Virus record (IMG/VR): IMGVR_UViG_3300025322_000014 | Origin: an uncultured virus (IMG/VR IMGVR_UViG_3300025322_000014) | Lineage: Duplodnaviria > Heunggongvirae > Uroviricota > Caudoviricetes | DNA length: 64,000 bases | Strand: one strand, 5' to 3' | Shown here: positions 7,184-54,911 of the stretch, piece by piece | Layout: each line of letters opens with the position of its first letter | Numbering within the stretch: the first letter of the stretch is position 1 | Program-made: the position numbers and the translations under genes | The notes under the pieces: model-generated | What the model was told of the DNA's origin: nothing | What the model saw: only the letters and a program-made list of their open reading frames with translations | Database searches by the model: none

Positions 7184-7504
7184 ATGACCGTTTGCTGGTT
7201 TTGTTTTTGGGGTTGGCCCAAACCAATTCAGGATATTTATAATGTTGCTGTCCAAGAACTCCAAGGCAATAACACCGCGTTATTGTACGGTCCTGCCCAC
7301 ATCGTATGGAGCGACGAAAACTTTGACTCTGCGCAATGGTGCCTTGATCATTTTGAGGACTCCACCGGAGGCTTTACCGAGTGGGAGCTTAATGTTGTTC
7401 GAGAATCTCTCGAGAAACTTGTAGCTGTGCCGGATAAGTACAAAAATTGGCCTACTGATTATGACGGCCAACACCCTGAAAATTTTCCACCGGATTGGGA
7501 TTAG
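7184..7504 (+). CDS. Hypothetical phage protein
   Basis: GGAGG RBS; CWFCFWGW and GPAHIVWSDENF motifs. Confidence 0.8.
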   Translation: MTVCWFCFWGWPKPIQDIYNVAVQELQGNNTALLYGPAHIVWSDENFDSAQWCLDHFEDSTGGFTEWELNVVRESLEKLVAVPDKYKNWPTDYDGQHPENFPPDWD

Positions 7505-7506
7505 CA

Positions 7507-9606
7507 ATGGCGACTTTCATTTTTGATTGCGAGACAAATGCGCTGCTCGACACCGCTACGCAGTTACACTGCATCATGGAAAAAGTGTGCGATGAGGATC
7601 AATTCGTCGCTTATGTTCCCGACTGGCAGGTCGGGCGTGCCAAGGCTTGGGCGCAACTGATTTGCGACCTTACAGGGCAGAGCAAGGTTGACGTGCGGGC
7701 CTTATCGGACTTTTACCCCGTCGGGCACAAACTTGTCGGGCATAACGTCCTCGGCTTCGACATCCCGGTGGTACGGAAGCTGCTCGGGTACGACCTGACT
7801 GCGCACAACGAAGTGCTTGATACTTTGGTCCTTTCGCGATACTGCAACCCGGACCGGCCGGCGCACTCACTCAAATGGTGGGGCACGCAGGTTCAAATCG
7901 AAAAGGTTGAGATTAAAAGCTGGACGGACGGTACACTCGAGTCCTACTTGACGCGGTGTTACGTCGATACACGGATCAACGAAGCGGTACTTGACGCCCT
8001 CCGGGAGGAATTTCACGACCCGCGGCTTCGCGCAGGCTTTGAGCTGGCGTCGTTCACTTACTCCGAAATGTGTCGCCAAGAGCGCACCGGTGCGTTGTTT
8101 GATATCGCCGCTGCAAAAACCTTGCACCGCCGGCTCGAATACGAGATGTCCCACATCGCGGAAACAGTCGAACCGTGCTTTGGCGAAGCCCCTTTGCCAA
8201 AAGCAAGACAGCCGAAGTTTCCGGTTAGGCCGTACAAGAAGAATGGTGAGTTGACGGTATCCGCGCAGCGATACGGCGCCAAGATCGGAATCACGGGTGA
8301 CCTTCCACTACGCGAGTCTCTTGCAGCCGGCCCCGTCTTGCTTACCTCGCCAATCACGCTGAACAATCCTGATCAGGTGAAACAGTATTTGTTCAATAAC
8401 GGCTGGGCTCCCACAATCTGGCGCACGAAGAGACTAGAGCTAGACGGTAAAAGGCGCGTGCCGGATGAGCGGCGACTGAAGCGCGCGACCAAGTATCTAA
8501 AAGATACGTGGAGTAGCCCATATCGCGACATGTTGTGGGACCGGCTCGGGGTACCCCCGGATTACCGCAAGTCTCTGGCAGAGCTGCCTCCGGTGGTGCA
8601 ACAGAAGTTGGTCGAGCTGTTCGCGTTTTGCGGCAAGGAGCTACCTTCGTCGCCCCAATTCTGCCAGCCCGTGAGCAAAACAATTTGCCCCAATCTCGAG
8701 AAGATGGAGGGGAATATTGCCCAGCAGATCATCTCTTGGATGGCCCGCCGCAATCGGCGAGGGGTCCTTGAGAGCTGGCTTAGTCACCCACGGCTCGCGC
8801 GGGATGGTCGCCTCCCTGCGGGAGCGACAAGTATCACAAACACGCACCGGCAACGCCACACTGTAGTGGTGAACGTGCCGCAGGCGGGCGGAAAAGCGAT
8901 CTATGGTAAGGAAATGAGGTCCCTGTTCATCGCCCCATCAGGGTACGTGTGTGTAGGGGCTGATGCCAGCGGGCTCGAGAATCGGATCGCTGGGCACTAT
9001 ACAACGCCGTTTGATGGCGGCGACTACGCGCGAGTGCTTCTTGAGGGAGATACCCACACGGTTAACGCTGCGGCTTACTCTGCTGCGATTGGGCGCGAAG
9101 TCTCGCGTCATGAAAGCAAACCAATTACATACGGTACGATATACGGGGCAGGTACGCGGAAAATCTCCCTCATGCTTGATGTCTCGCTTGATACAGCGAA
9201 GCTAATGACTGAGGCCTTTTGGAAAGCTAATCCTGGGCTCTTGACCTACCGGAAACATCTCGAGCAGGAATGGGAACACAACAACCGCGAGTTTATTGGG
9301 GGTTTAGACGGGCGGCACATTCATACACGCAGCCGACACAGCTTGGTCAACGCCGCGTTCCAATCCGCCGGGGCGATCGTGATGGACCGGGCTTGGTGGG
9401 TTGCGAAGCCATTGCTTGAGCAACTTGACTACCAGCGTGTAGGGTATTGGCACGACGAATATCTATGTTATGCCGCGCCTGATGTTGCCGAGCAAGTCGG
9501 TGCGATTATTAAGCGTAGTATAGCGGAGGCCGGCCGCTACTACAGCTTGAATGTGCCTTTGGATGGCGAGTATCGAGTAGGTTCTTCATGGGCGGAGGTG
9601 CATTGA
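7507..9606 (+). CDS. polA: Family A DNA polymerase with 3'-5' exonuclease
   Basis: Exo motifs FDCET, GHNVLGFD, CYVD; pol motif A DASGLE, motif B RHESKPITYGTIYG, motif C HDE. Confidence 0.96.
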   Translation: MATFIFDCETNALLDTATQLHCIMEKVCDEDQFVAYVPDWQVGRAKAWAQLICDLTGQSKVDVRALSDFYPVGHKLVGHNVLGFDIPVVRKLLGYDLTAHNEVLDTLVLSRYCNPDRPAHSLKWWGTQVQIEKVEIKSWTDGTLESYLTRCYVDTRINEAVLDALREEFHDPRLRAGFELASFTYSEMCRQERTGALFDIAAAKTLHRRLEYEMSHIAETVEPCFGEAPLPKARQPKFPVRPYKKNGELTVSAQRYGAKIGITGDLPLRESLAAGPVLLTSPITLNNPDQVKQYLFNNGWAPTIWRTKRLELDGKRRVPDERRLKRATKYLKDTWSSPYRDMLWDRLGVPPDYRKSLAELPPVVQQKLVELFAFCGKELPSSPQFCQPVSKTICPNLEKMEGNIAQQIISWMARRNRRGVLESWLSHPRLARDGRLPAGATSITNTHRQRHTVVVNVPQAGGKAIYGKEMRSLFIAPSGYVCVGADASGLENRIAGHYTTPFDGGDYARVLLEGDTHTVNAAAYSAAIGREVSRHESKPITYGTIYGAGTRKISLMLDVSLDTAKLMTEAFWKANPGLLTYRKHLEQEWEHNNREFIGGLDGRHIHTRSRHSLVNAAFQSAGAIVMDRAWWVAKPLLEQLDYQRVGYWHDEYLCYAAPDVAEQVGAIIKRSIAEAGRYYSLNVPLDGEYRVGSSWAEVH

Positions 9607-10138: not shown

Positions 10139-10357
10139 ATGTACAAGATTGTGCGCATGCAGTCGGAGACACCTGTTGGTTGGTGGGCTCTATCAAAAGG
10201 AGACTTTTTCGTGGATGACGGCCGTCTTCACCTTAAAGTCGATGACAATTATTGTATTGCTTTTGAAGGAGTTTCCTCTCCAGCACTAAGCACTAGAACC
10301 GGGCTTTCGAACACGAACCGCCTCAAGCCAGTTAATGTCGAGATAACGGTTTCATAA
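10139..10357 (+). CDS. Hypothetical protein
   Basis: AAGGA RBS; weakly similar to 10540..10758. Confidence 0.65.
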   Translation: MYKIVRMQSETPVGWWALSKGDFFVDDGRLHLKVDDNYCIAFEGVSSPALSTRTGLSNTNRLKPVNVEITVS

Positions 10358-10539
10358 GGCCGAGCTGAATTGGAGTTACCATGACGCAACGTGAGATTAA
10401 ACACATTCTCGAACTAATCGAAAAAATGCCAGGTGGTTAACGTAAGCTCACTCAAGCCGTTTGAAGCCGCCGCGGCCATGAAAGAAATTATTCTCGGGTG
10501 TTTGGCTTTTGACTTCCTAGCAAACTCGGAGACTAAGCG

Positions 10540-10758
10540 ATGACAATAACAGTTGTTCGGCGCTACAAAAAGTTAGAATTTGGTAACTTAGCCAATGGTG
10601 AGTTGTTCCGCCTAGCCGATAACAATTTACTTGGGGATTTGTACCACAAACGTGACGACAGTTTTGCGTATGAGTTTGCGTGCAGAGCTGTGAAGCATTT
10701 TGCGTTTGACGACGAGATCGTCCGCGTAGATGCCAACCTCGAGTGGTGGGATGCGTGA
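10540..10758 (+). CDS. Hypothetical protein
   Basis: GGAG RBS; 72 aa. Confidence 0.7.
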   Translation: MTITVVRRYKKLEFGNLANGELFRLADNNLLGDLYHKRDDSFAYEFACRAVKHFAFDDEIVRVDANLEWWDA

Positions 10759-10943
10759 AGATCAAAGACTGGGAAACGATCGACGGCAAGACCGTACGCG
10801 AATGGATGTGCTGCGGCCTGGTCTGGCAGATGATCATCACGCCGGTCTGGGAAGGATCGTGGTGGAACACACAGTGCCCGAAGTGCGGCGACGAAAAGGA
10901 ACCGCCGCCGGTTCCGATGGATCGTCCTGATTTCAAATGGTAA
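10755..10943 (+). CDS. Small Cys/Trp-rich protein
   Basis: GTGA overlap; CCG..CPKCG. Confidence 0.6.
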   Translation: MKIKDWETIDGKTVREWMCCGLVWQMIITPVWEGSWWNTQCPKCGDEKEPPPVPMDRPDFKW

Positions 10944-11160
10944 GAGGAGATCGCTCAATGATCGCTGGAGCATGCACCGATTGGAATTTCGCCGGGCCAA
11001 ATGTCAACGTGGCCCATGACTACCCTTGCCTACGACTCTGGAAGAAATCTGCCAAGCGGCCGCCGCGCACGCGACAGAACAGGTACGAATTACGCCTACG
11101 GCGTAATGGACACGCAACGACAAAGCCACGAGCACACTGAAATGCTTGTATGAAAGCATA

Positions 11161-11249
11161 GCCCTCCCAGTGGCGGTAGAGTTGGAGGGGCAGGCCCAGC
11201 AGGCGTAGCGTGTCCCGAGCTGGGTTGGTTGGACACCCAAGCCGCCACA
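11161..11249 (+). ncRNA. Candidate pseudoknotted structured RNA heading the tRNA-like array
   Basis: Pairings GCCCTCC/GGAGGGGC, GTGGCGG/CCGCCAC, CCCAGC/GCTGGG, GTGTCC/GGACAC. Confidence 0.45.
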
Positions 11250-11254
11250 TTTTT

Positions 11255-11326
11255 CACCCCGGTCGTTCAGCGGTAGGACACTTTCCATTCCGGAAAGAAA
11301 TATGGGTTCAATTCCCACTGGGGTGT
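11255..11326 (+). tRNA. tRNA-Glu(TTC)-like, atypical (A at position 33)
   Basis: CACCCCG/TGGGGTG acceptor, CTTTC-CATTCCG-GAAAG anticodon arm, GGTTCAATTCCC T arm. Confidence 0.65.
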
Positions 11327-11330
11327 TTTT

Positions 11331-11456
11331 TGCGGTGTAGATCAACGGTAGATCGTCGGGCAAAGCCGGGTGTCGCGAGTCCAAAGGGCTGTGACACGGC
11401 CAGCCACGCGCCCCGGCGTGGACCCAAACATTCCGGTTCGACTCCGGACGCCGCTC
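11331..11456 (+). ncRNA. Initiator-tRNA-shaped RNA with anticodon loop replaced by a ~62-nt structured insert
   Basis: TGCGGTG/CGCCGCT acceptor (1:72 mismatch), GATC/GATC D stem, TCGGG/CCCAA stem, TCCGG-TTCGACT-CCGGA T arm. Confidence 0.75.
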
Positions 11457-11457
11457 T

Positions 11458-11531
11458 GTGGCCGTCGCGTGTTGGTGTCGCGGGCCTGACTGTGGATCAG
11501 GTCGCGTGGGTTCGATTCCCACCGGCCACCC
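11458..11531 (+). tRNA. tRNA-His(GTG), no encoded G-1
   Basis: GTGGCCG/CGGCCAC acceptor, CCTGA-CTGTGGA-TCAGG, GGTTCGATTCCC. Confidence 0.8.
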
Positions 11532-11584
11532 TGCGGGAGCAAACATGAACGCGAAAAAATCGTACCACCTCAAGGAGTCCTATA

Positions 11585-11956
11585 ATGCCTGAGAAAAAGA
11601 AACGAAGTGATGCTGTTCGCGCGTGCGCAACGGCGGCTTGCGACAAATGGTTTTTGGAATCCGGGCGACATGTGTCCGGTAAGATTTTCTACCGCATACT
11701 GGCTGCACTTGAGGGCGCCATGCCCGCGCGCTTCAGCGAACGCCGACCTGCGGTGCCTGAGGAGCCACTGCCGCTTGAGAAGTTCATGGTGCCGGCGCAC
11801 AAACCGATGCTCGTTGAATGGCCTTGTGTTCGCGTCACTAATGATGACTCCGTCGCGCTGTCCACAACTGGCGATCCGGACGTGATTAAATTCCAACCGC
11901 GGCCCTGCGATGTTGTTTTGCCTATCAAAATGGACATACTAGATGACCCTACCTAA
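11585..11956 (+). CDS. Hypothetical protein
   Basis: AAGGAG RBS; 123 aa. Confidence 0.7.
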   Translation: MPEKKKRSDAVRACATAACDKWFLESGRHVSGKIFYRILAALEGAMPARFSERRPAVPEEPLPLEKFMVPAHKPMLVEWPCVRVTNDDSVALSTTGDPDVIKFQPRPCDVVLPIKMDILDDPT

Positions 11957-12118
11957 ACTTCTTCTGCGCCGCGATGGTAAGCAATGGTATGTAAGGGGAC
12001 TACCGGAGTATGAAGTCGACGGGGAGTGGTTCACTGAAGTCGGCCCGTACGATTCCCGTGCCGAGGCAAGTGAATCTCGAGACTCAATGATGTTTGTCTT
12101 TCAAGACTTGGAGAAACC

Positions 12119-12418
12119 ATGAAAGTAAGAGTATCAATCGAAACGGTTAACTGCGACCTTAACGACGATTATTTGGATCCCATCAGCGTGAGTTGTGTCG
12201 ACGACAAGCTGCATTATGCTCTCGCGAGGTGCTTGCGAGCTGTTGATCCTCCGAGGATGTATAACGAGCTTGCCAAAGTAGTTGATTATGTGGCCGATTG
12301 CGACACAACGTCAGAACTTTCAGTCGTCAAGAACGAAACGTTGCTATTTATTCTCGCAGCACGTGATCTAGTTGACCGATACCGGGCTCTCGACAAAGGG
12401 AACTTTGATCGTGTTTGA
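12119..12418 (+). CDS. Hypothetical protein
   Basis: GGAG RBS; 99 aa. Confidence 0.7.
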   Translation: MKVRVSIETVNCDLNDDYLDPISVSCVDDKLHYALARCLRAVDPPRMYNELAKVVDYVADCDTTSELSVVKNETLLFILAARDLVDRYRALDKGNFDRV

Positions 12419-13637
12419 GATCATAAACGCCGAGTGCTTGAGCTATCTCGAAAGTACAACAGAGGTTTCGCTTTGGCATACCATCTTCGCCGACCCGCCG
12501 GATAACATCGGGCTGAAGTATGGGAGCTATGCGGACAACGCGCCGCAAAACGACTATACCAAGACCATGAGGCGATGGATTGAAACTTTCATCGACCATG
12601 CGGAGACAGTCTGGCTGTCGTACAATGCAAAGTGGACGTTTGAAGTCGGAGCGATCGTCAAGAATTTATTGGATGCGCAGCCGTTTTTGAACGCGAAGGC
12701 GTGCGTGCAGACGTTTACTTTCGGTCAGCATAATCAAAAAGACCTTGGGAACAACCACCGTCCGCTGATTCGACTGCAGTGGAATTATGCCAAGCTATAC
12801 CCAGATGCAATCCGCATCCCATCCTGGAGGCAAGAAAACGACGACAAGCGAGCCGACCCACGTGGCCGTGTGCCTGGGGATGCCGCTGAATTTAACCCGC
12901 CCGATACTAAACCATTACCGATATGGGCTCCACAAGACATTATACGATTTCTTGCAAAAGTGCAGCAGGCAGAAAACCATGAATGTTGGGAATGGACCGC
13001 TGGGAAAACTAATGGATATGGCCAGTTTAGAATTGGCACGAATCACTATAGGGCTCCTCGGTTGATGTGGCGGCTTGCGCACGGCTCTGATCCTATGGGC
13101 TCATTGGTCCTGCATGCCTGTGACAATCCTGGATGCTGCAATCCATCCCATCTGTTCTTGGGGTCTGCTTCAGACAACAGCAATGACATGAAACAAAAGG
13201 GGCGAGCAAAACTCTTTATGGGAGAAGAGCATGGCCAAGCGAAATTGTCGGATGAGGCAGTGATTGAAATTTATTGCTCAAGCGAAACGTGCGCAGATCT
13301 AGCCCGAAAGCATGGTGTATCCTCCAGCCTCATTTCTCGTATACGTACAGGCAAGAATTGGACACATGTTACAAGAGATTTACCCCTCTCTGATGTTTTC
13401 AGATTTTCAAGAGTGACCGGGAATTCTAAACAACGAAGGAAGTTCCATCCGACGCAACTTCACGAAGGACTAGTCGAGCGATGTCTGAAGCTGACTACAC
13501 CTCCCGGCGGGAGTGTTCTTGATCCCTTCGGGGGTACGGGAACCACTCTGCGAGTCTGCCGGCGACTAGGTTTTGACTGTACCCTCGTCGAGATTGATCC
13601 GTTTTACTGCGAGAAGATCAGGGAAGAGCACTCCTGA
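12411..13637 (+). CDS. N4/N6 DNA methyltransferase (beta-type order) with in-frame HNH endonuclease + HTH insert
   Basis: ADPPDN near N-term, HPTQ and VLDPFGGTGTT near C-term; internal CWEW..GYG..LHACDNPGCCNPSHL..N..D. Confidence 0.9.
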   Translation: MFEIINAECLSYLESTTEVSLWHTIFADPPDNIGLKYGSYADNAPQNDYTKTMRRWIETFIDHAETVWLSYNAKWTFEVGAIVKNLLDAQPFLNAKACVQTFTFGQHNQKDLGNNHRPLIRLQWNYAKLYPDAIRIPSWRQENDDKRADPRGRVPGDAAEFNPPDTKPLPIWAPQDIIRFLAKVQQAENHECWEWTAGKTNGYGQFRIGTNHYRAPRLMWRLAHGSDPMGSLVLHACDNPGCCNPSHLFLGSASDNSNDMKQKGRAKLFMGEEHGQAKLSDEAVIEIYCSSETCADLARKHGVSSSLISRIRTGKNWTHVTRDLPLSDVFRFSRVTGNSKQRRKFHPTQLHEGLVERCLKLTTPPGGSVLDPFGGTGTTLRVCRRLGFDCTLVEIDPFYCEKIREEHS

Positions 13638-14469: not shown

Positions 14470-14808
14470 ATGAACGAGCCACTCGTGCAATTAACCATCA
14501 CCGAGATGTCAATGATCCACAAAGCCAGAAATAAAGAGTGTAGAGCTGCGTGGGATCGGCACAAGGAAGCCGAGGCGATAGGAGACAAAGCCGGCTCGGC
14601 TGCAGCTAGAGCGGAATATGATGACGTTTGTGCGTTCATGGATTTTTGGAGTAACCTTATCCGGCAGGACAAGGCCCTAGGGGTCGAAACCGAAATGTGC
14701 TTTATTTGTACGCACTACTACAACAAAGAAGATGAGTGTCTTCGTGACGGAATAAATTTATGTCCTGATTGCGCTGAAAATAGATACAATCCACCGTGGT
14801 ACAACTAG
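14470..14808 (+). CDS. Hypothetical protein with C-terminal CxxC pairs
   Basis: Same GGAGCAATGAGATG leader as both flanking paralogs. Confidence 0.75.
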   Translation: MNEPLVQLTITEMSMIHKARNKECRAAWDRHKEAEAIGDKAGSAAARAEYDDVCAFMDFWSNLIRQDKALGVETEMCFICTHYYNKEDECLRDGINLCPDCAENRYNPPWYN

Positions 14809-14828
14809 CACTCTTGCGGAGCAATGAG

Positions 14829-15062
14829 ATGAGTGAAATTTGGTTTGAAGGCCCGTACGGTACGTTGAAATTTCATGCTGCTGGATTCCATGGATCGGTA
14901 TATTCGGCCGCGGACGGAGGAGGATTCAAGGCCGAATTCAACGGCCGGGCAATCAAAAAGAAATTTTTTACGACTTGTAAAGCAAAGAAAGCTATGGAGA
15001 AACTGGCAAGGCTGAAAGCTACCCAATTGCTAGCGTGTCTAGACGCTGGCATCAGCGATTAG
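14829..15062 (+). CDS. Hypothetical protein, paralog of 14238..14468
   Basis: Clear aa and nt similarity. Confidence 0.8.
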   Translation: MSEIWFEGPYGTLKFHAAGFHGSVYSAADGGGFKAEFNGRAIKKKFFTTCKAKKAMEKLARLKATQLLACLDAGISD

Positions 15063-15113: not shown

Positions 15114-15869
15114 CTAAAGAGCCTGCTGGAACGGCACGCAGCCAAGAATCTTGTCAACTGCCCAGCTTAAATCTGGGATCTCGACTTCCTCATGCGCCCC
15201 GCCCAGACGAATCCAGATCAGAGTCATCAACTCGGCGCCGTAGTTGTAGCGATCAGCTAGGATCCGGCGGTACAGGTTAAGCTGGAGCGCGTAGTGCCAG
15301 ACGTTGCTGTCGTGGAGTTTTCGCAGCGGCGTCTTCATCCGCTTGTATCCCGCCAGGTCGATTTTAGCTGAGGTTTTGAAGTCAACAATGGCAGGCACCC
15401 CACGCAAGCTGCAGACTAGGTCGCAGGTCCCCGCGATACCCCACTCGGGCTGACAGATGCGAACCTCTGGGACGGCCCAGCCAAACGACAGCTCAGCATG
15501 AGCCTCGTAGAAACCCCAGACGCCCAGGTAATACCCCCCGGCCGGACGGTTTGGGGGGACCTCCCCCCTCGTCCATGCTCCGCAGGAATTGACCTGGTGC
15601 GCGATTCGCTCCGCCTCTTGGTGCACCTCCGTACCGAGATCGGCGGCGTCCTGTCCCTTCTGGTGCCAGTCCTGGAGCACTGAATCGACCGATCTTCCTT
15701 CACGGTAGGCTACCCTACCGGCGTGAAACTGGGCATCAAAGGGGTGCGAGAAGGATTCGACAACGCGGGTAACGGACGTTAACCGCTGCCCGCGGTACGT
15801 GTAGGCGTGCTCCGCAGGATCGAAGACAAGATCGGAGTCGAAGAAATCATCCTGTGTTAGAGTACCCAC
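15114..15869 (-). CDS. PD-(D/E)XK exonuclease (Cas4/RecB-like)
   Basis: SVT, GTEVH, IAGTCDL..IVDFKT, YALQLNLY. Confidence 0.88.
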   Translation of the reverse strand: MGTLTQDDFFDSDLVFDPAEHAYTYRGQRLTSVTRVVESFSHPFDAQFHAGRVAYREGRSVDSVLQDWHQKGQDAADLGTEVHQEAERIAHQVNSCGAWTRGEVPPNRPAGGYYLGVWGFYEAHAELSFGWAVPEVRICQPEWGIAGTCDLVCSLRGVPAIVDFKTSAKIDLAGYKRMKTPLRKLHDSNVWHYALQLNLYRRILADRYNYGAELMTLIWIRLGGAHEEVEIPDLSWAVDKILGCVPFQQAL

Positions 15870-16480
15870 TTGCTCAATGCCTCTTGGCTCTCTTCTCCCT
15901 TTAGGAGTATCTGGATGCTATCAACAATTCCGACATCGGTCAGCTCCGCTGGTCTTTCTGTGATGGCTTGCGATACGCCAGGCTCTTCCCGGTCATGCAT
16001 GCATATCAAGCCGCCGGCAGCGACTTTTGGAGCCCAGCAGCGCAGATCAGTCATCACTTCGTGGTAGTGGTGGTCACCATCGATGAACAGGAGGTCGATG
16101 CTCCCGCAGGGCCAGGCTGCGGCGGCGCGGGCAGAGGGTAACTCGACCGCCGAGATCACCCCTCCTAGGCCGGAAGTCATGACATTCTTTCGCCACTGTG
16201 TTGCATCACCGGGGCCATACGCAATTGTGGCACTTGTTAGACTTGGCAAGTGTGGGTCGACGCAATATATTCTGGCACCACCCCCGTGAAAACTACCGTA
16301 GGCCATGGCGAGCGCGGACAGCCCTTGGTAGGTCCCGATCTCGACAATATCTTGATACGCAACAACGCGGTTTGCGGCGTGCGAGATAAAATATGCTTCA
16401 TTGATAGTCAACCAACCGCGAACTCGATTTGACATGTCACGGAAAAAGACATCGAAGTAGAAGATATTGAAGTTTGTCAT
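15857..16480 (-). CDS. Class I SAM-dependent methyltransferase (Methyltransf_24-like)
   Basis: GWL...E, IVEIGTYQGLS, IDLLFIDGDH, GGLICMHD. Confidence 0.88.
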   Translation of the reverse strand: MTNFNIFYFDVFFRDMSNRVRGWLTINEAYFISHAANRVVAYQDIVEIGTYQGLSALAMAYGSFHGGGARIYCVDPHLPSLTSATIAYGPGDATQWRKNVMTSGLGGVISAVELPSARAAAAWPCGSIDLLFIDGDHHYHEVMTDLRCWAPKVAAGGLICMHDREEPGVSQAITERPAELTDVGIVDSIQILLKGEESQEALSKWVL

Positions 16481-16515: not shown

Positions 16516-17565
16516 TTAGATTGCATTCTTTTCCAGAACATACGCACCGTTTTTGATAGCCGAAATCATCTCATCCGGCGTGTCGAACCCCTTCCTATGG
16601 AGGTCAATGCGGCTCCAGAATTCCGTACCGTCCAGACGATCACCGTTAACATATCCCGAGTATGCGTCAATCCACTGGCACATGTGGCCGTTGATCATCT
16701 CTTCCTTCTCGAATCTCGAGTTCTCTGGCCTCTGAATATCCGGCGGGTCACTTGCCGCGTGGGCGCCGTTGTGGTAACTTTGTTCCTTTGTGTGCAGTGT
16801 ATGTCCACGTATTGTGGACATACTGTCACTTGCCGCTATCGCCGCCTCAAATGCGCGACTCACCGGCTCGATCCCTGCGGGGGCTGCTTGCTCGGCGTCT
16901 TCAAATGCTTTTCGATTTGTAGTCCAGTCCATGACAAAATCTACGGGATTTTTAATTACTTTTTTCCCCCACACAACATCGTCAAGTGTGCCGCGGATTT
17001 CTTGGCGGTCGTTCTTACGATCTACCGGCTCGAATTGTGTGGCCACATAATCAAACCATTCCTTTGCCCACGGGGAGTCGTTGTGCGGCGTGGATTCCTG
17101 ACACCACACGATCTTCTTGCCCTTGAAGTATGTGTCGCCGTCTTTGATTGTGTACTGCTTCGGATTGTGATCCTTGAACACCTCTTTGAGATGGGCGACA
17201 TGTTTCTCCAGCTCATTGATGCGTTTGTCAATAGGCGCTGCAGGCGGTCGATCATCTTCCAGCTTCCCACACAGCTCAGCGTCCAGGAGTATTCCGGCGG
17301 AGGCAATGATGCTTGCGAGATGTTTGACCTGGGTCTTCGGGTCCTCGTTCTGCCCGTTCCACCACTCCATCATGTGCCTGCCCATCGCTTCGCGATAGAT
17401 TGAGGCACGTACGCCGGCGATTCGCCAGTTGTAGCGGCCGTATTTCAAGGCGCCTTCGAGGAACGCCATGGATACTTCGACGTCGATTGTGTCGGGGATT
17501 AAGCCGAGTGGAATCTTTCCACTGCCGATGATATCCTTCGGGTTGGATGGTTTTGTATCGCTCAT
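16516..17565 (-). CDS. dATP/dGTP diphosphohydrolase (DUF5664) domain protein with C-terminal extension
   Basis: NPKD..G..K.PL.LIP, EGALKYGRYNWR, AM.RH..W.NG...DP....HL. Confidence 0.85.
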   Translation of the reverse strand: MSDTKPSNPKDIIGSGKIPLGLIPDTIDVEVSMAFLEGALKYGRYNWRIAGVRASIYREAMGRHMMEWWNGQNEDPKTQVKHLASIIASAGILLDAELCGKLEDDRPPAAPIDKRINELEKHVAHLKEVFKDHNPKQYTIKDGDTYFKGKKIVWCQESTPHNDSPWAKEWFDYVATQFEPVDRKNDRQEIRGTLDDVVWGKKVIKNPVDFVMDWTTNRKAFEDAEQAAPAGIEPVSRAFEAAIAASDSMSTIRGHTLHTKEQSYHNGAHAASDPPDIQRPENSRFEKEEMINGHMCQWIDAYSGYVNGDRLDGTEFWSRIDLHRKGFDTPDEMISAIKNGAYVLEKNAI

Positions 17566-52473: not shown

Positions 52474-52545
52474 TAGCGGGGGCGGGATTCGAACCCGCGG
52501 TCTCAAGCGTATGAAGCTCGCAAGTTGCCTCTACTCCACCCCGCA
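52474..52545 (-). tRNA. tRNA-Met(CAT), initiator-like acceptor
   Basis: TGCGGGG/CCCCGCT, CGAGC-TTCATAC-GCTTG, GGTTCGAATCCC. Confidence 0.88.
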
Positions 52546-54331: not shown

Positions 54332-54808
54332 TTACGCGACTTCTCGCGTTCGCGCTTCGCCATCGCGTCGACCATCGACTTCTTGGAGGGCATCTGTTTG
54401 CGACCGCCGGTCATTGGCATACGAGCCATAATGTGCTCCTGTTGGGTTTAGGTAGGCGAAAAACTTTTCAGCGATCGGGGCTATACGTTTCTCATAGTAA
54501 CCGACTGCGATGTTGCACGGTCTGCACAAAATACCTCTCACTTGGCCTGTCTCATAGTTGTGGTCTATGTGAGAACTTTTGTTAATCAAGCATCCGCATA
54601 AAGCGCATTGGAAATTCTGCGATTCCAGCAACGCTTTATGTTGGTGCTTGTTAAGACCGAATTTTGCTTTCCGGCTCGAAGCAACATTGTTGTCCGCGCA
54701 AACTTGGCATTTTGTCTTGTCAGGGCGCCTATCACGACCGCACTGACATTTACCGGCGGCCTTTTTTTTATCCCGCCATCTTTTTACCGGCCAGTAATTT
54801 GGATGCAC
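54332..54808 (-). CDS. Endonuclease VII-like (homing-type) nuclease
   Basis: KFGL..QNFQCALCG, HIDH...TGQVRGILC..CN. Confidence 0.88.
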   Translation of the reverse strand: MHPNYWPVKRWRDKKKAAGKCQCGRDRRPDKTKCQVCADNNVASSRKAKFGLNKHQHKALLESQNFQCALCGCLINKSSHIDHNYETGQVRGILCRPCNIAVGYYEKRIAPIAEKFFAYLNPTGAHYGSYANDRRSQTDALQEVDGRRDGEARTREVA

Positions 54809-54911
54809 TGCTGTTTCCCCCAACAGAAAACACCCAAGAAAAATCAAAGGGGCAGGCGGCTTGGGGACCGCTTTTCGGCGATCAACCTAGCCCCAATGTT
54901 ATTCTACTGCG

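Follow-up and report, generated by a model that had tools for sequence, protein, structure and literature searches.

A phage tRNA frame of the initiator type whose anticodon loop is replaced by 62 nt: candidate tRNA-shaped RNA or dead gene

Phage transfer RNA (tRNA) genes are thought, in sections of one account, partly to replace host tRNAs destroyed by anticodon nucleases, and the same sections carry the proposal that phage tRNAs alter their anticodon arms and so evade the tRNA nucleases of the host (PMC10264068). VapC toxins, as described in part of a further report, cleave tRNA-fMet (formylmethionine) in the anticodon stem-loop (PMC4705866). Two kinds of RNA that do not decode are also relevant here: the RNAC of phage T4, whose role is given as unknown in the portions of the literature cited (PMC3014915, PMC9697503), and the engineered tRNA scaffold, in which the acceptor, T and D arms are kept and a structured RNA stands for the anticodon stem-loop, an arrangement that, according to excerpts of its description, is processed and accumulates in Escherichia coli (PMC3753655). 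Here, we analysed a 64,000-nucleotide (nt) stretch of DNA from an uncultured tailed phage (IMG/VR record IMGVR_UViG_3300025322_000014; Caudoviricetes), referred to below as the window, and describe a 126-nt tRNA-like element, called X, located at 11331–11456 on its plus strand.

X has the frame of an initiator-type tRNA with a different domain in the place of its anticodon loop (Table 1). All six acceptor base pairs (bp) are formed between G2–G7 (11332–11337) and C66–C71 (11449–11454), U1 (11331) stands unpaired opposite U72 (11455), and the discriminator is C73 (11456). U8 and A9 lie between the acceptor and the D arm, in which A11:U24 corresponds to the A at 11341 with the T at 11353, and G26 precedes the anticodon stem. 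In the latter, U27 (11356) pairs with A43 (11427), C28 and A42 are mismatched, and G29–G31 (11358–11360) stand opposite C39–C41 (11423–11425) as three potential G-C pairs; a variable loop of 4 nt (11428–11431) then leads to the T arm. The conserved tRNA nucleotides U8, A14, G18–G19, A21 and G53:C61 are all in place and, over ~64 frame positions, C28·A42 is the only stem mismatch. A U is found at position −1 and, as in the neighbouring tRNAs, CCA is not encoded. From the anticodon loop, only C32 and A38 are kept at the edges of the insert; five loop nucleotides are gone, and no remnant of CAU is left. The insert is predicted to fold into two hairpins, HP1 and HP2, of which HP1 could be extended by 3 bp (11365–11367 with 11398–11400). 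The preliminary description of this locus, made from the letters alone, had thus placed its features correctly: the cloverleaf frame, the 1:72 mismatch, the GATC/GATC D stem, the canonical T arm and the ~62-nt two-hairpin domain within 11361–11422 are all present.

The insert contains no CAT, and a loop of 7 nt is found nowhere in X. When we considered the eight ways of retaining 7 nt between G31 and C39, none of them (0/8) gave a U33. The methionyl-tRNA synthetase MetRS requires the CAU anticodon; X, in which CAU is missing, should therefore remain uncharged by this enzyme. A search of Rfam over 11331–11456 returned no match at gathering thresholds, nor at E≤10, with the gathering score of the tRNA family (RF00005, 29 bits) not reached by X. 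Within the reach of those models, this blank excludes group I introns, known small ribozymes, transfer-messenger RNA (tmRNA) and Y RNAs. A scan for bulge-helix-bulge motifs under a loose definition gave 26 arrangements, compared with a mean of 19.2 and a maximum of 32 in shuffled sequences, and none of them lies against the anticodon stem in a way that would yield a normal loop. Likewise, no RNA ligase, splicing endonuclease or tRNA enzyme domain was found in the 88 open reading frames (ORFs) scanned against Pfam, i.e. 84 of the 92 picked greedily plus four others; the eight left out overlap the tRNA genes, are antisense or are small ORFs (11943–12122 and 14796–15062). Overall, these data support, as judged from the sequence, that X would be unable to decode and could not be repaired by splicing. 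This agrees with the non-decoding RNA initially proposed: there is no CAT, no excision yields a U33 loop and Rfam gives no intron match. That proposal had also left room for excision to a normal tRNA and for membership of a known Rfam family; none of the eight joins gives such a tRNA, and no family matches at E≤10.

The tRNA finder ARAGORN misses X in its default mode and, in its intron mode, calls exactly 11331–11456 as a tRNA. We rejected the product that this mode offers, a tRNA-Ala(AGC) with a 44-nt intron, which has no U33, no G3:U70 (the alanine identity mark) and a variable region of 15 unpaired nt. Three other candidates were likewise rejected. A group I intron is not compatible with an insert of 62 nt, which is far too short, with the lack of any Rfam intron or ribozyme at E≤10 or with the lack of a usable exon join; for tmRNA, the dedicated ARAGORN search of 11201–11600 was negative and Rfam was without match; for YrlA or another Y RNA, there was no Rfam match at E≤10 and no Ro60/TROVE domain among the Pfam matches of the 88 ORFs.

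We then compared X with other tRNAs using R1, a covariance model built from X alone. Over the 64 kilobases (kb) of the window, the best non-self match of R1 is the phage tRNA-Met (33.5 bits), followed by tRNA-Tyr (12.5 bits), with no others at E≤10. Over ten other loci, it finds E. coli metZ, metW and metV (35.3 bits each), viral tRNA-Met genes (30.1 and 28.0 bits) and one odd tRNA-like sequence (locus L021, 21.7 bits); in the same loci, at E≤10, it reports no T4 tRNA and no Glu, Trp, Asp or Arg tRNA, and it also fails to report one viral tRNA-Met (L025). In alignments of tRNA halves, scored as 1 per match with gaps penalised, the 5′ half of X reaches 23.5 over 31 positions against metZ, the phage's other tRNAs scoring 10–18, and by alignment the body of X is closer to the E. 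coli initiator than to any other phage tRNA. A purine at position 11 with a pyrimidine at 24, here A11:U24, is a mark of initiators. The initiator-type frame claimed earlier is thus borne out by a model that recovers E. coli initiators and Met tRNAs and almost nothing else, and these comparisons show X to be kin to, and apparently derived from, an initiator-type (Met) tRNA gene. An origin of the insert itself from a neighbouring tRNA was considered and rejected: a 9-nt word is common with tRNA-His, and the local-alignment p of 0.038, from one of 12 tests, is not significant.

The separate Met tRNA that the preliminary description had placed at 52474–52545 was found there by ARAGORN, on the minus strand. 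Its acceptor displays U1·U72, G2:C71, C3:G70, G4:C69 and G5:C68, together with A11:U24 and A73, and its anticodon stem (CGAGC/GCTTG) is, unlike that of X, without three consecutive G-C pairs. By these features, it appears to be a hybrid of initiator and elongator. Against X, its 5′ half scores 16 over 31 positions and its 3′ half 20 over 35. A decoding tRNA-Met without the G-C run that X keeps would be compatible, by analogy, with the nuclease-escape idea of PMC10264068.

Table 1. Coordinates of element X, its parts and the tRNA genes discussed in the text (positions in the window)
Feature	Position	Strand	Basis and remarks
Element X, initiator-type tRNA frame with 62-nt insert	11331–11456	+	Sequence, ARAGORN intron mode, R1 self-score 160.6 bits
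Acceptor 5′ strand, U1 + G2–G7	11331–11337	+	Pair probabilities 0.99–1.0
D arm: GATC/GATC stem, AACGGTA loop (has GG), A11:U24	11340–11354	+	Pair probability 0.93; metZ alignment
Anticodon stem 5′ strand, U27 C28 G29 G30 G31	11356–11360	+	Sequence, metZ alignment, folding
62-nt insert replacing the anticodon loop, no CAT	11361–11422	+	Sequence; single copy in window
Hairpin HP1: 7+5 bp, one bulged G, AAA loop	11370–11397	+	Folding
Hairpin HP2: 6 bp, 6-nt loop GCCCCG	11404–11421	+	Folding
Anticodon stem 3′ strand, C39 C40 C41 A42 A43	11423–11427	+	Sequence, metZ alignment, folding
T arm: 5 bp, loop TTCGACT, G53:C61	11432–11448	+	Exact T-loop motif 11435–11445
Acceptor 3′ strand, C66–C71, U72, discriminator C73, no encoded CCA	11449–11456	+	Sequence, ARAGORN
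tRNA-Glu(UUC)	11255–11326	+	ARAGORN; ends 4 nt (TTTT) before X
tRNA-His(GUG), encoded G-1	11458–11531	+	ARAGORN; begins 1 nt past the X discriminator
Decoding tRNA-Met(CAU) of the phage	52474–52545	−	ARAGORN; R1 33.5 bits

X lies between two ordinary tRNA genes. The 131 bases that separate tRNA-Glu from tRNA-His consist of four T's, X (126 nt) and one T, and X and its neighbouring tRNAs are on the plus strand, in the same orientation as the flanking genes. The phage carries a family A DNA polymerase gene (7495–9606), GroES-like, sigma-factor-like and D5-type primase-helicase genes, and codes for adaptor proteins of the SU10 type with a weak, sub-threshold portal match. The stretch is contained in 15 soil or sediment DNA runs, and no RNA run is among those listed.

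We infer that X is transcribed, processed and stable, in the following way. Glu, X and His would be transcribed as one precursor, from which host tRNA-processing enzymes would release X. RNase P requires only the acceptor/T-arm stack and the elbow, both present in X. It would cut the 5′ end of X, and its cut before G-1 of tRNA-His would leave on X a one-base trailer, to be trimmed before CCA addition, as in the neighbouring tRNAs. From this pathway one would expect a separate, stable RNA of ~126–130 nt, useful or not, with the two-hairpin domain at its anticodon end. Speculatively, and as the preliminary description had suggested, such an RNA could have either of two jobs: to carry the two hairpins on a tRNA body that resists nucleases, as a natural “tRNA scaffold”, or to lure host factors by which the body of the initiator tRNA is recognised. 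The specific form of this idea, that X is a natural tRNA scaffold, by which the tRNA maturation enzymes of the host would excise, stabilise and perhaps modify the 62-nt domain, and that this domain, or the uncleavable initiator-like body, binds or baits a host factor such as a VapC-type toxin, we regard as possible and rather doubtful; the bait idea would be compatible, by analogy, with the contrast between the anticodon stems of the phage tRNA-Met and X.

We tentatively favour, at a confidence that stops short of even, the broader reading that X is a processed, selected, tRNA-shaped RNA acting as a carrier or a decoy. Pairing is complete in its acceptor (6/6), its D arm (4/4) and its T arm (5/5), it is packed tightly on the transcribed strand between two tRNA genes, and its insert is no repeat, with no second copy in the window and no match in IMG/VR. 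Because the loop is replaced rather than interrupted, and the frame otherwise flawless, the balance tilts slightly toward selection. Replacement of the loop is unexpected after a simple insertion followed by neutral decay, and a single complex recombination event could produce it.

Several results weigh against selection on X as an RNA. The first concern its predicted structure. The minimum free energy (MFE) of X in nearest-neighbour folding is −55.8 kcal/mol, compared with −51.5 to −52.1 kcal/mol for the cloverleaf with a three-way junction. In the MFE fold, the three G-C pairs are swapped for a 4-bp hairpin, UCGG/CCGG, formed by the 5′ anticodon strand with 11366–11369, and in the ensemble the pair probability is 0.17 for the three G-C pairs versus ~0.37 for this rival hairpin. 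Of the three G-C pairs claimed for the base of the anticodon stem, the letters stand (11358–11360/11423–11425), and their pairing is predicted with a probability of 0.17. Note that nearest-neighbour models are blind to tRNA tertiary contacts, and the modelled preference for the rival hairpin is a caveat and no refutation. The fold energy of the whole of X is unexceptional (z −2.0; 8/200 shuffles as good), as is that of the insert alone (z −1.6 to −1.7; 10–11/200 shuffles as good), and the anticodon stem carries the C28·A42 mismatch. The pattern of HP1 is unique in the window (1 match versus 0.04 expected). Taken together, the tRNA frame of X is clearly beyond chance, and the structure of the insert is less secure.

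The second set concerns partners and relatives. The 123-amino acid (aa) ORF downstream gave no lead in Pfam, PHROG or the Atlas, and no partner protein is evident. No homolog of X was found in GenBank phages, IMG/VR, JGI metagenomes or GTDB genomes (one per species), and conservation or covariation therefore lends no support to a role. In GenBank phages, blastn with 11200–11600 returned nothing at E≤1e-5; with X alone and E≤10, the 21 records returned all had E≥1 and covered no more than 25% of X. A 24-nt match to Caulobacter phage CcrRogue was rejected as a relative: it lies beside a tRNA cluster, on the other strand, with no X-like element according to R1. The phage itself has only distant relatives by its DNA polymerase, with maximum identities of 42% in IMG/VR (11 loci), 47% in JGI metagenomes (8 loci) and about 32% in GenBank phages (3037 records, all <60%). 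The loci of the best of these relatives (42–47% identical) carry at most one tRNA-Arg, and ARAGORN with introns found no insert-bearing tRNA on loci L001–L027.

Pattern scans gave a similar picture. In IMG/VR, the 30-nt HP1 stretch had 0 matches, and an fMet-type stem followed by a 40–70-nt insert and a T arm had eight, none of them X-like: five are ordinary tRNAs with a chance upstream word, and three (L021, L023 and L026) are without an ARAGORN call. These three, of which L023 and L026 are identical IMG/VR stretches, combine a canonical T arm with a closing stem that resembles an acceptor, and are not called as tRNAs by ARAGORN even with introns; they may be further phage tRNA look-alikes. 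Also in IMG/VR, the tRNA-Glu anticodon arm had 0 matches (its shorter form gave 20 chance matches, including 0 tRNAs and none resembling the window), the tRNA-His arm had 0 matches, and the tRNA-Met arm had one, on a 14.5-kb fragment identical over 523 aligned bases. By this identity, the fragment is the same phage and no relative, and it covers the other tRNA cluster. In GTDB genomes, the D arm and fMet stem with a 40–70-nt insert gave 0 matches, and the same frame with a 7-nt loop gave seven, none a tRNA. R1 also had no match in the records of four relatives and in the same-phage fragment; these blanks carry no weight, because the search of the fragment also missed the tRNA-Met in a stretch shown to be identical.

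The closest comparison comes from a soil run (X15) with a contig of 617 nt, at a depth of 3.8, and is weak evidence as a single contig. It carries a tRNA-Glu ~92% identical to that of the window (6/72 letters differ) on 11252–11323. Next, in place of 631 nt of the window, come 417 letters that find no placement there at ≥80% identity, and the contig then matches 11955–12026 with 11 differences. In the corresponding phage, X, tRNA-His and the next ORF thus seem, from this alignment, to be replaced or strongly diverged. If the contig is sound, X is located in a variable, accessory part of the genome. The difference says little on the function of X, as it extends to tRNA-His as well. We also observed, in the tRNA-Glu of this contig, a C for T at 11288 that changes the anticodon from UUC to CUC, in a relative that is ~90% identical. 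In three runs of the same strain as the window (X12–X14), the flanks are covered and no contig spans ~11070–11725, from which no inference was drawn.

These points are shared with the strongest alternative, which is well possible; the two leading readings, a selected RNA and a dead gene, are nearly balanced. According to this alternative, a single recombination or insertion event destroyed the anticodon loop of X, an initiator-type tRNA gene that now yields an idle by-product of the processing of its neighbours and is bound for decay or loss. It would account for X being a singleton with no detectable homolog, for the nearest relative, that of the soil contig, seeming to differ in exactly the X stretch, for the C28·A42 mismatch and for the statistically unexceptional fold of the insert; the other Met tRNA, which has the same unusual acceptor, could cover the need. 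A dead gene sits less easily with a frame in which all other helices and the conserved tertiary nucleotides are intact, and with a loop from which five nucleotides are gone rather than displaced, for which a plain insertion is insufficient. Moreover, the insert is no repeated element within the 64 kb, and the tRNA-Met is no copy of X, given the half-alignment scores above and its different anticodon stem.

That the 62 bp act at the level of DNA, with the RNA being irrelevant, is improbable; such an element could be, for example, a palindrome bound by a protein, a site of recombination or a small mobile hairpin that inserted into a tRNA gene. In favour, HP1 is a near-perfect inverted repeat whose pattern is unique in the window, a 21-nt inverted repeat brackets the entire tRNA cluster, and the stretch seems strain-variable; yet neither the insert nor HP1 has a second copy in the window or in IMG/VR, or above chance in GenBank phages, no target-site duplication is present at the ends of the insert, and no promoter- or terminator-like site lies inside it. 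A scan of 10300–12200 found one promoter-like and two terminator-like sites, no excess over shuffles, with 0 in the insert. Least probable, and very much so, is an intron whose removal from the RNA would give a working tRNA: ARAGORN does offer the tRNA-Ala(AGC) with a 44-nt intron, and unexplained tRNA “introns” have been published for Lak megaphages, as given in part of that report (PMC6784885), but there is no CAT and no U33 in any of the eight loop choices, the tRNA-Ala product has the defects listed above, the insert is too short for a group I intron with no Rfam intron or ribozyme at E≤10, bulge-helix-bulge motifs are at chance level, and the 88 ORFs include no ligase or splicing endonuclease. 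What remains of the probability falls to something else.

Further observations were made in the neighbourhood of X and elsewhere in the window. The 21-nt inverted repeat (11053–11073/11620–11640, 86% complementary) encloses the leader, Glu, X and His, with its arms inside flanking small ORFs, and might serve as a stem for processing over a long range or mark a cassette boundary. Just upstream of tRNA-Glu, at 11170–11250, an 8-bp closing stem (GTGGCGGT/GCCGCCAC) surrounds ~65 nt and ends in ATTTTT just before the tRNA; this structure folds with a z of just −1.4 and escapes both ARAGORN and R1. On the plus strand at 12372–13637, a 421-aa ORF combines an HNH endonuclease (residues ~174–330) with the C-terminal part only of an N6/N4 DNA methylase (332–417), and looks like a homing endonuclease lodged within a methylase gene. 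On the minus strand at 16516–17565, a 349-aa protein carries an N-terminal dATP/dGTP diphosphohydrolase domain (PF18909, 2.7e-22) and is adjoined by a methyltransferase (15857–16480) and an exonuclease-like gene, a set that hints at nucleotide-pool editing or a genome with modified bases. Finally, 54833–54897 (minus strand) matches the Rfam int-alpA RNA with 37.7 bits, for a gathering score of 35.8 bits, and overlaps the start of an endonuclease VII gene (54332–54847).

As a single sequence, X would be a lead and no finding on function. If it is indeed a non-decoding RNA in the shape of an initiator, phages would have a second strategy beside tRNA replacement, that of a bait or a carrier. Nature would then have, in X, its own version of the tRNA scaffold made in the laboratory, and T4 RNAC, the role of which has been unknown for decades, would be joined by a second example; the scaffold or bait reading, if true, would define an undescribed class of phage counter-defence or regulatory RNA. 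If X is instead a dead gene, it illustrates how, in phage tRNA clusters, large inserts hide tRNA-derived genes from tRNA finders and from Rfam. In either case, we rate X as fitting among the tRNA-derived small RNAs or pseudo-tRNAs of such clusters. In a search of the open-access literature, we found no description of a natural phage counterpart of the tRNA scaffold, nor of a phage initiator-type tRNA with the anticodon loop replaced by a branched domain.

Among known RNAs, X can be set beside E. coli metZ, metW and metV (NC_000913.3 2947387–2947683), with which it shares the 1:72 mismatch, G2:C71, C3:G70, G4:C69, G5:C68 and A11:U24. The anticodon-stem strands TCGGG...CCC are common to metZ and X, and metZ/W/V are the best outside match of R1 at 35.3 bits. 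At 1:72, X has U·U where metZ has C·A; its discriminator is C73 and not A73, C28·A42 takes the place of a C:G pair, the variable loop is of 4 nt, and 62 nt stand where metZ has the CAU loop. X, being without an anticodon, is outside the initiator tRNA family in function and is derived from that family.

Other systems resemble X in part. The tRNA introns of Lak megaphages are, according to parts of their description, also phage tRNA inserts missed by bacterial tRNA finders and without an Rfam family; however, removal of a Lak insert gives a named tRNA with an anticodon, which no excision does for X, and different cohorts share conserved Lak inserts (PMC6784885), whereas for X no relative is known. 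YrlA, as presented in sections of PMC4201824, and tmRNA are like X non-decoding mimics of the acceptor and T arm with another domain at the place of the anticodon arm. Unlike both, X begins and ends within the acceptor stem and has a complete D arm; in addition, and in contrast to tmRNA, no tag-peptide reading frame is apparent in the X insert, for which no dedicated test was made. The tRNA-Other of Bacillus cereus is, in the excerpts at hand of PMC3399842, tRNA-shaped and not for translation, as proposed for X, and has a phenotype and a regulatory role; by description, which is the only level of this comparison, it is chromosomal and apparently without a large insert, whereas X belongs to a phage (PMC3399842).

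Phage T4 offers the nearest natural parallel in its RNAC (species 1 RNA, 139 nt) and RNAD, which like X are small RNA genes packed against tRNA genes: rnaD begins 1 nt after tRNA-Arg, and rnaC 6 nt after rnaD. In RNAC, internal hairpins accompany a canonical T arm and a closing stem, the latter two of which X has too; RNAC, however, is without a recognisable D arm or initiator marks, whereas X keeps a complete cloverleaf frame. On the T4 locus (L036), R1 has no match at E≤10, giving no homology of X to RNAC or RNAD. As a separate observation, T4 rnaC (1909–2047 of this locus, minus strand) has a fold z of −4.6, with 0/200 shuffles as good and the T arm at its end; ARAGORN in intron mode calls part of it tRNA-Leu-like, and it has no Rfam family. 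The engineered tRNA scaffold, for its part, shares the architecture of X, the scaffold being man-made and X natural and known from sequence alone. By analogy with these systems, X would work most like the engineered tRNA scaffold and T4 RNAC.

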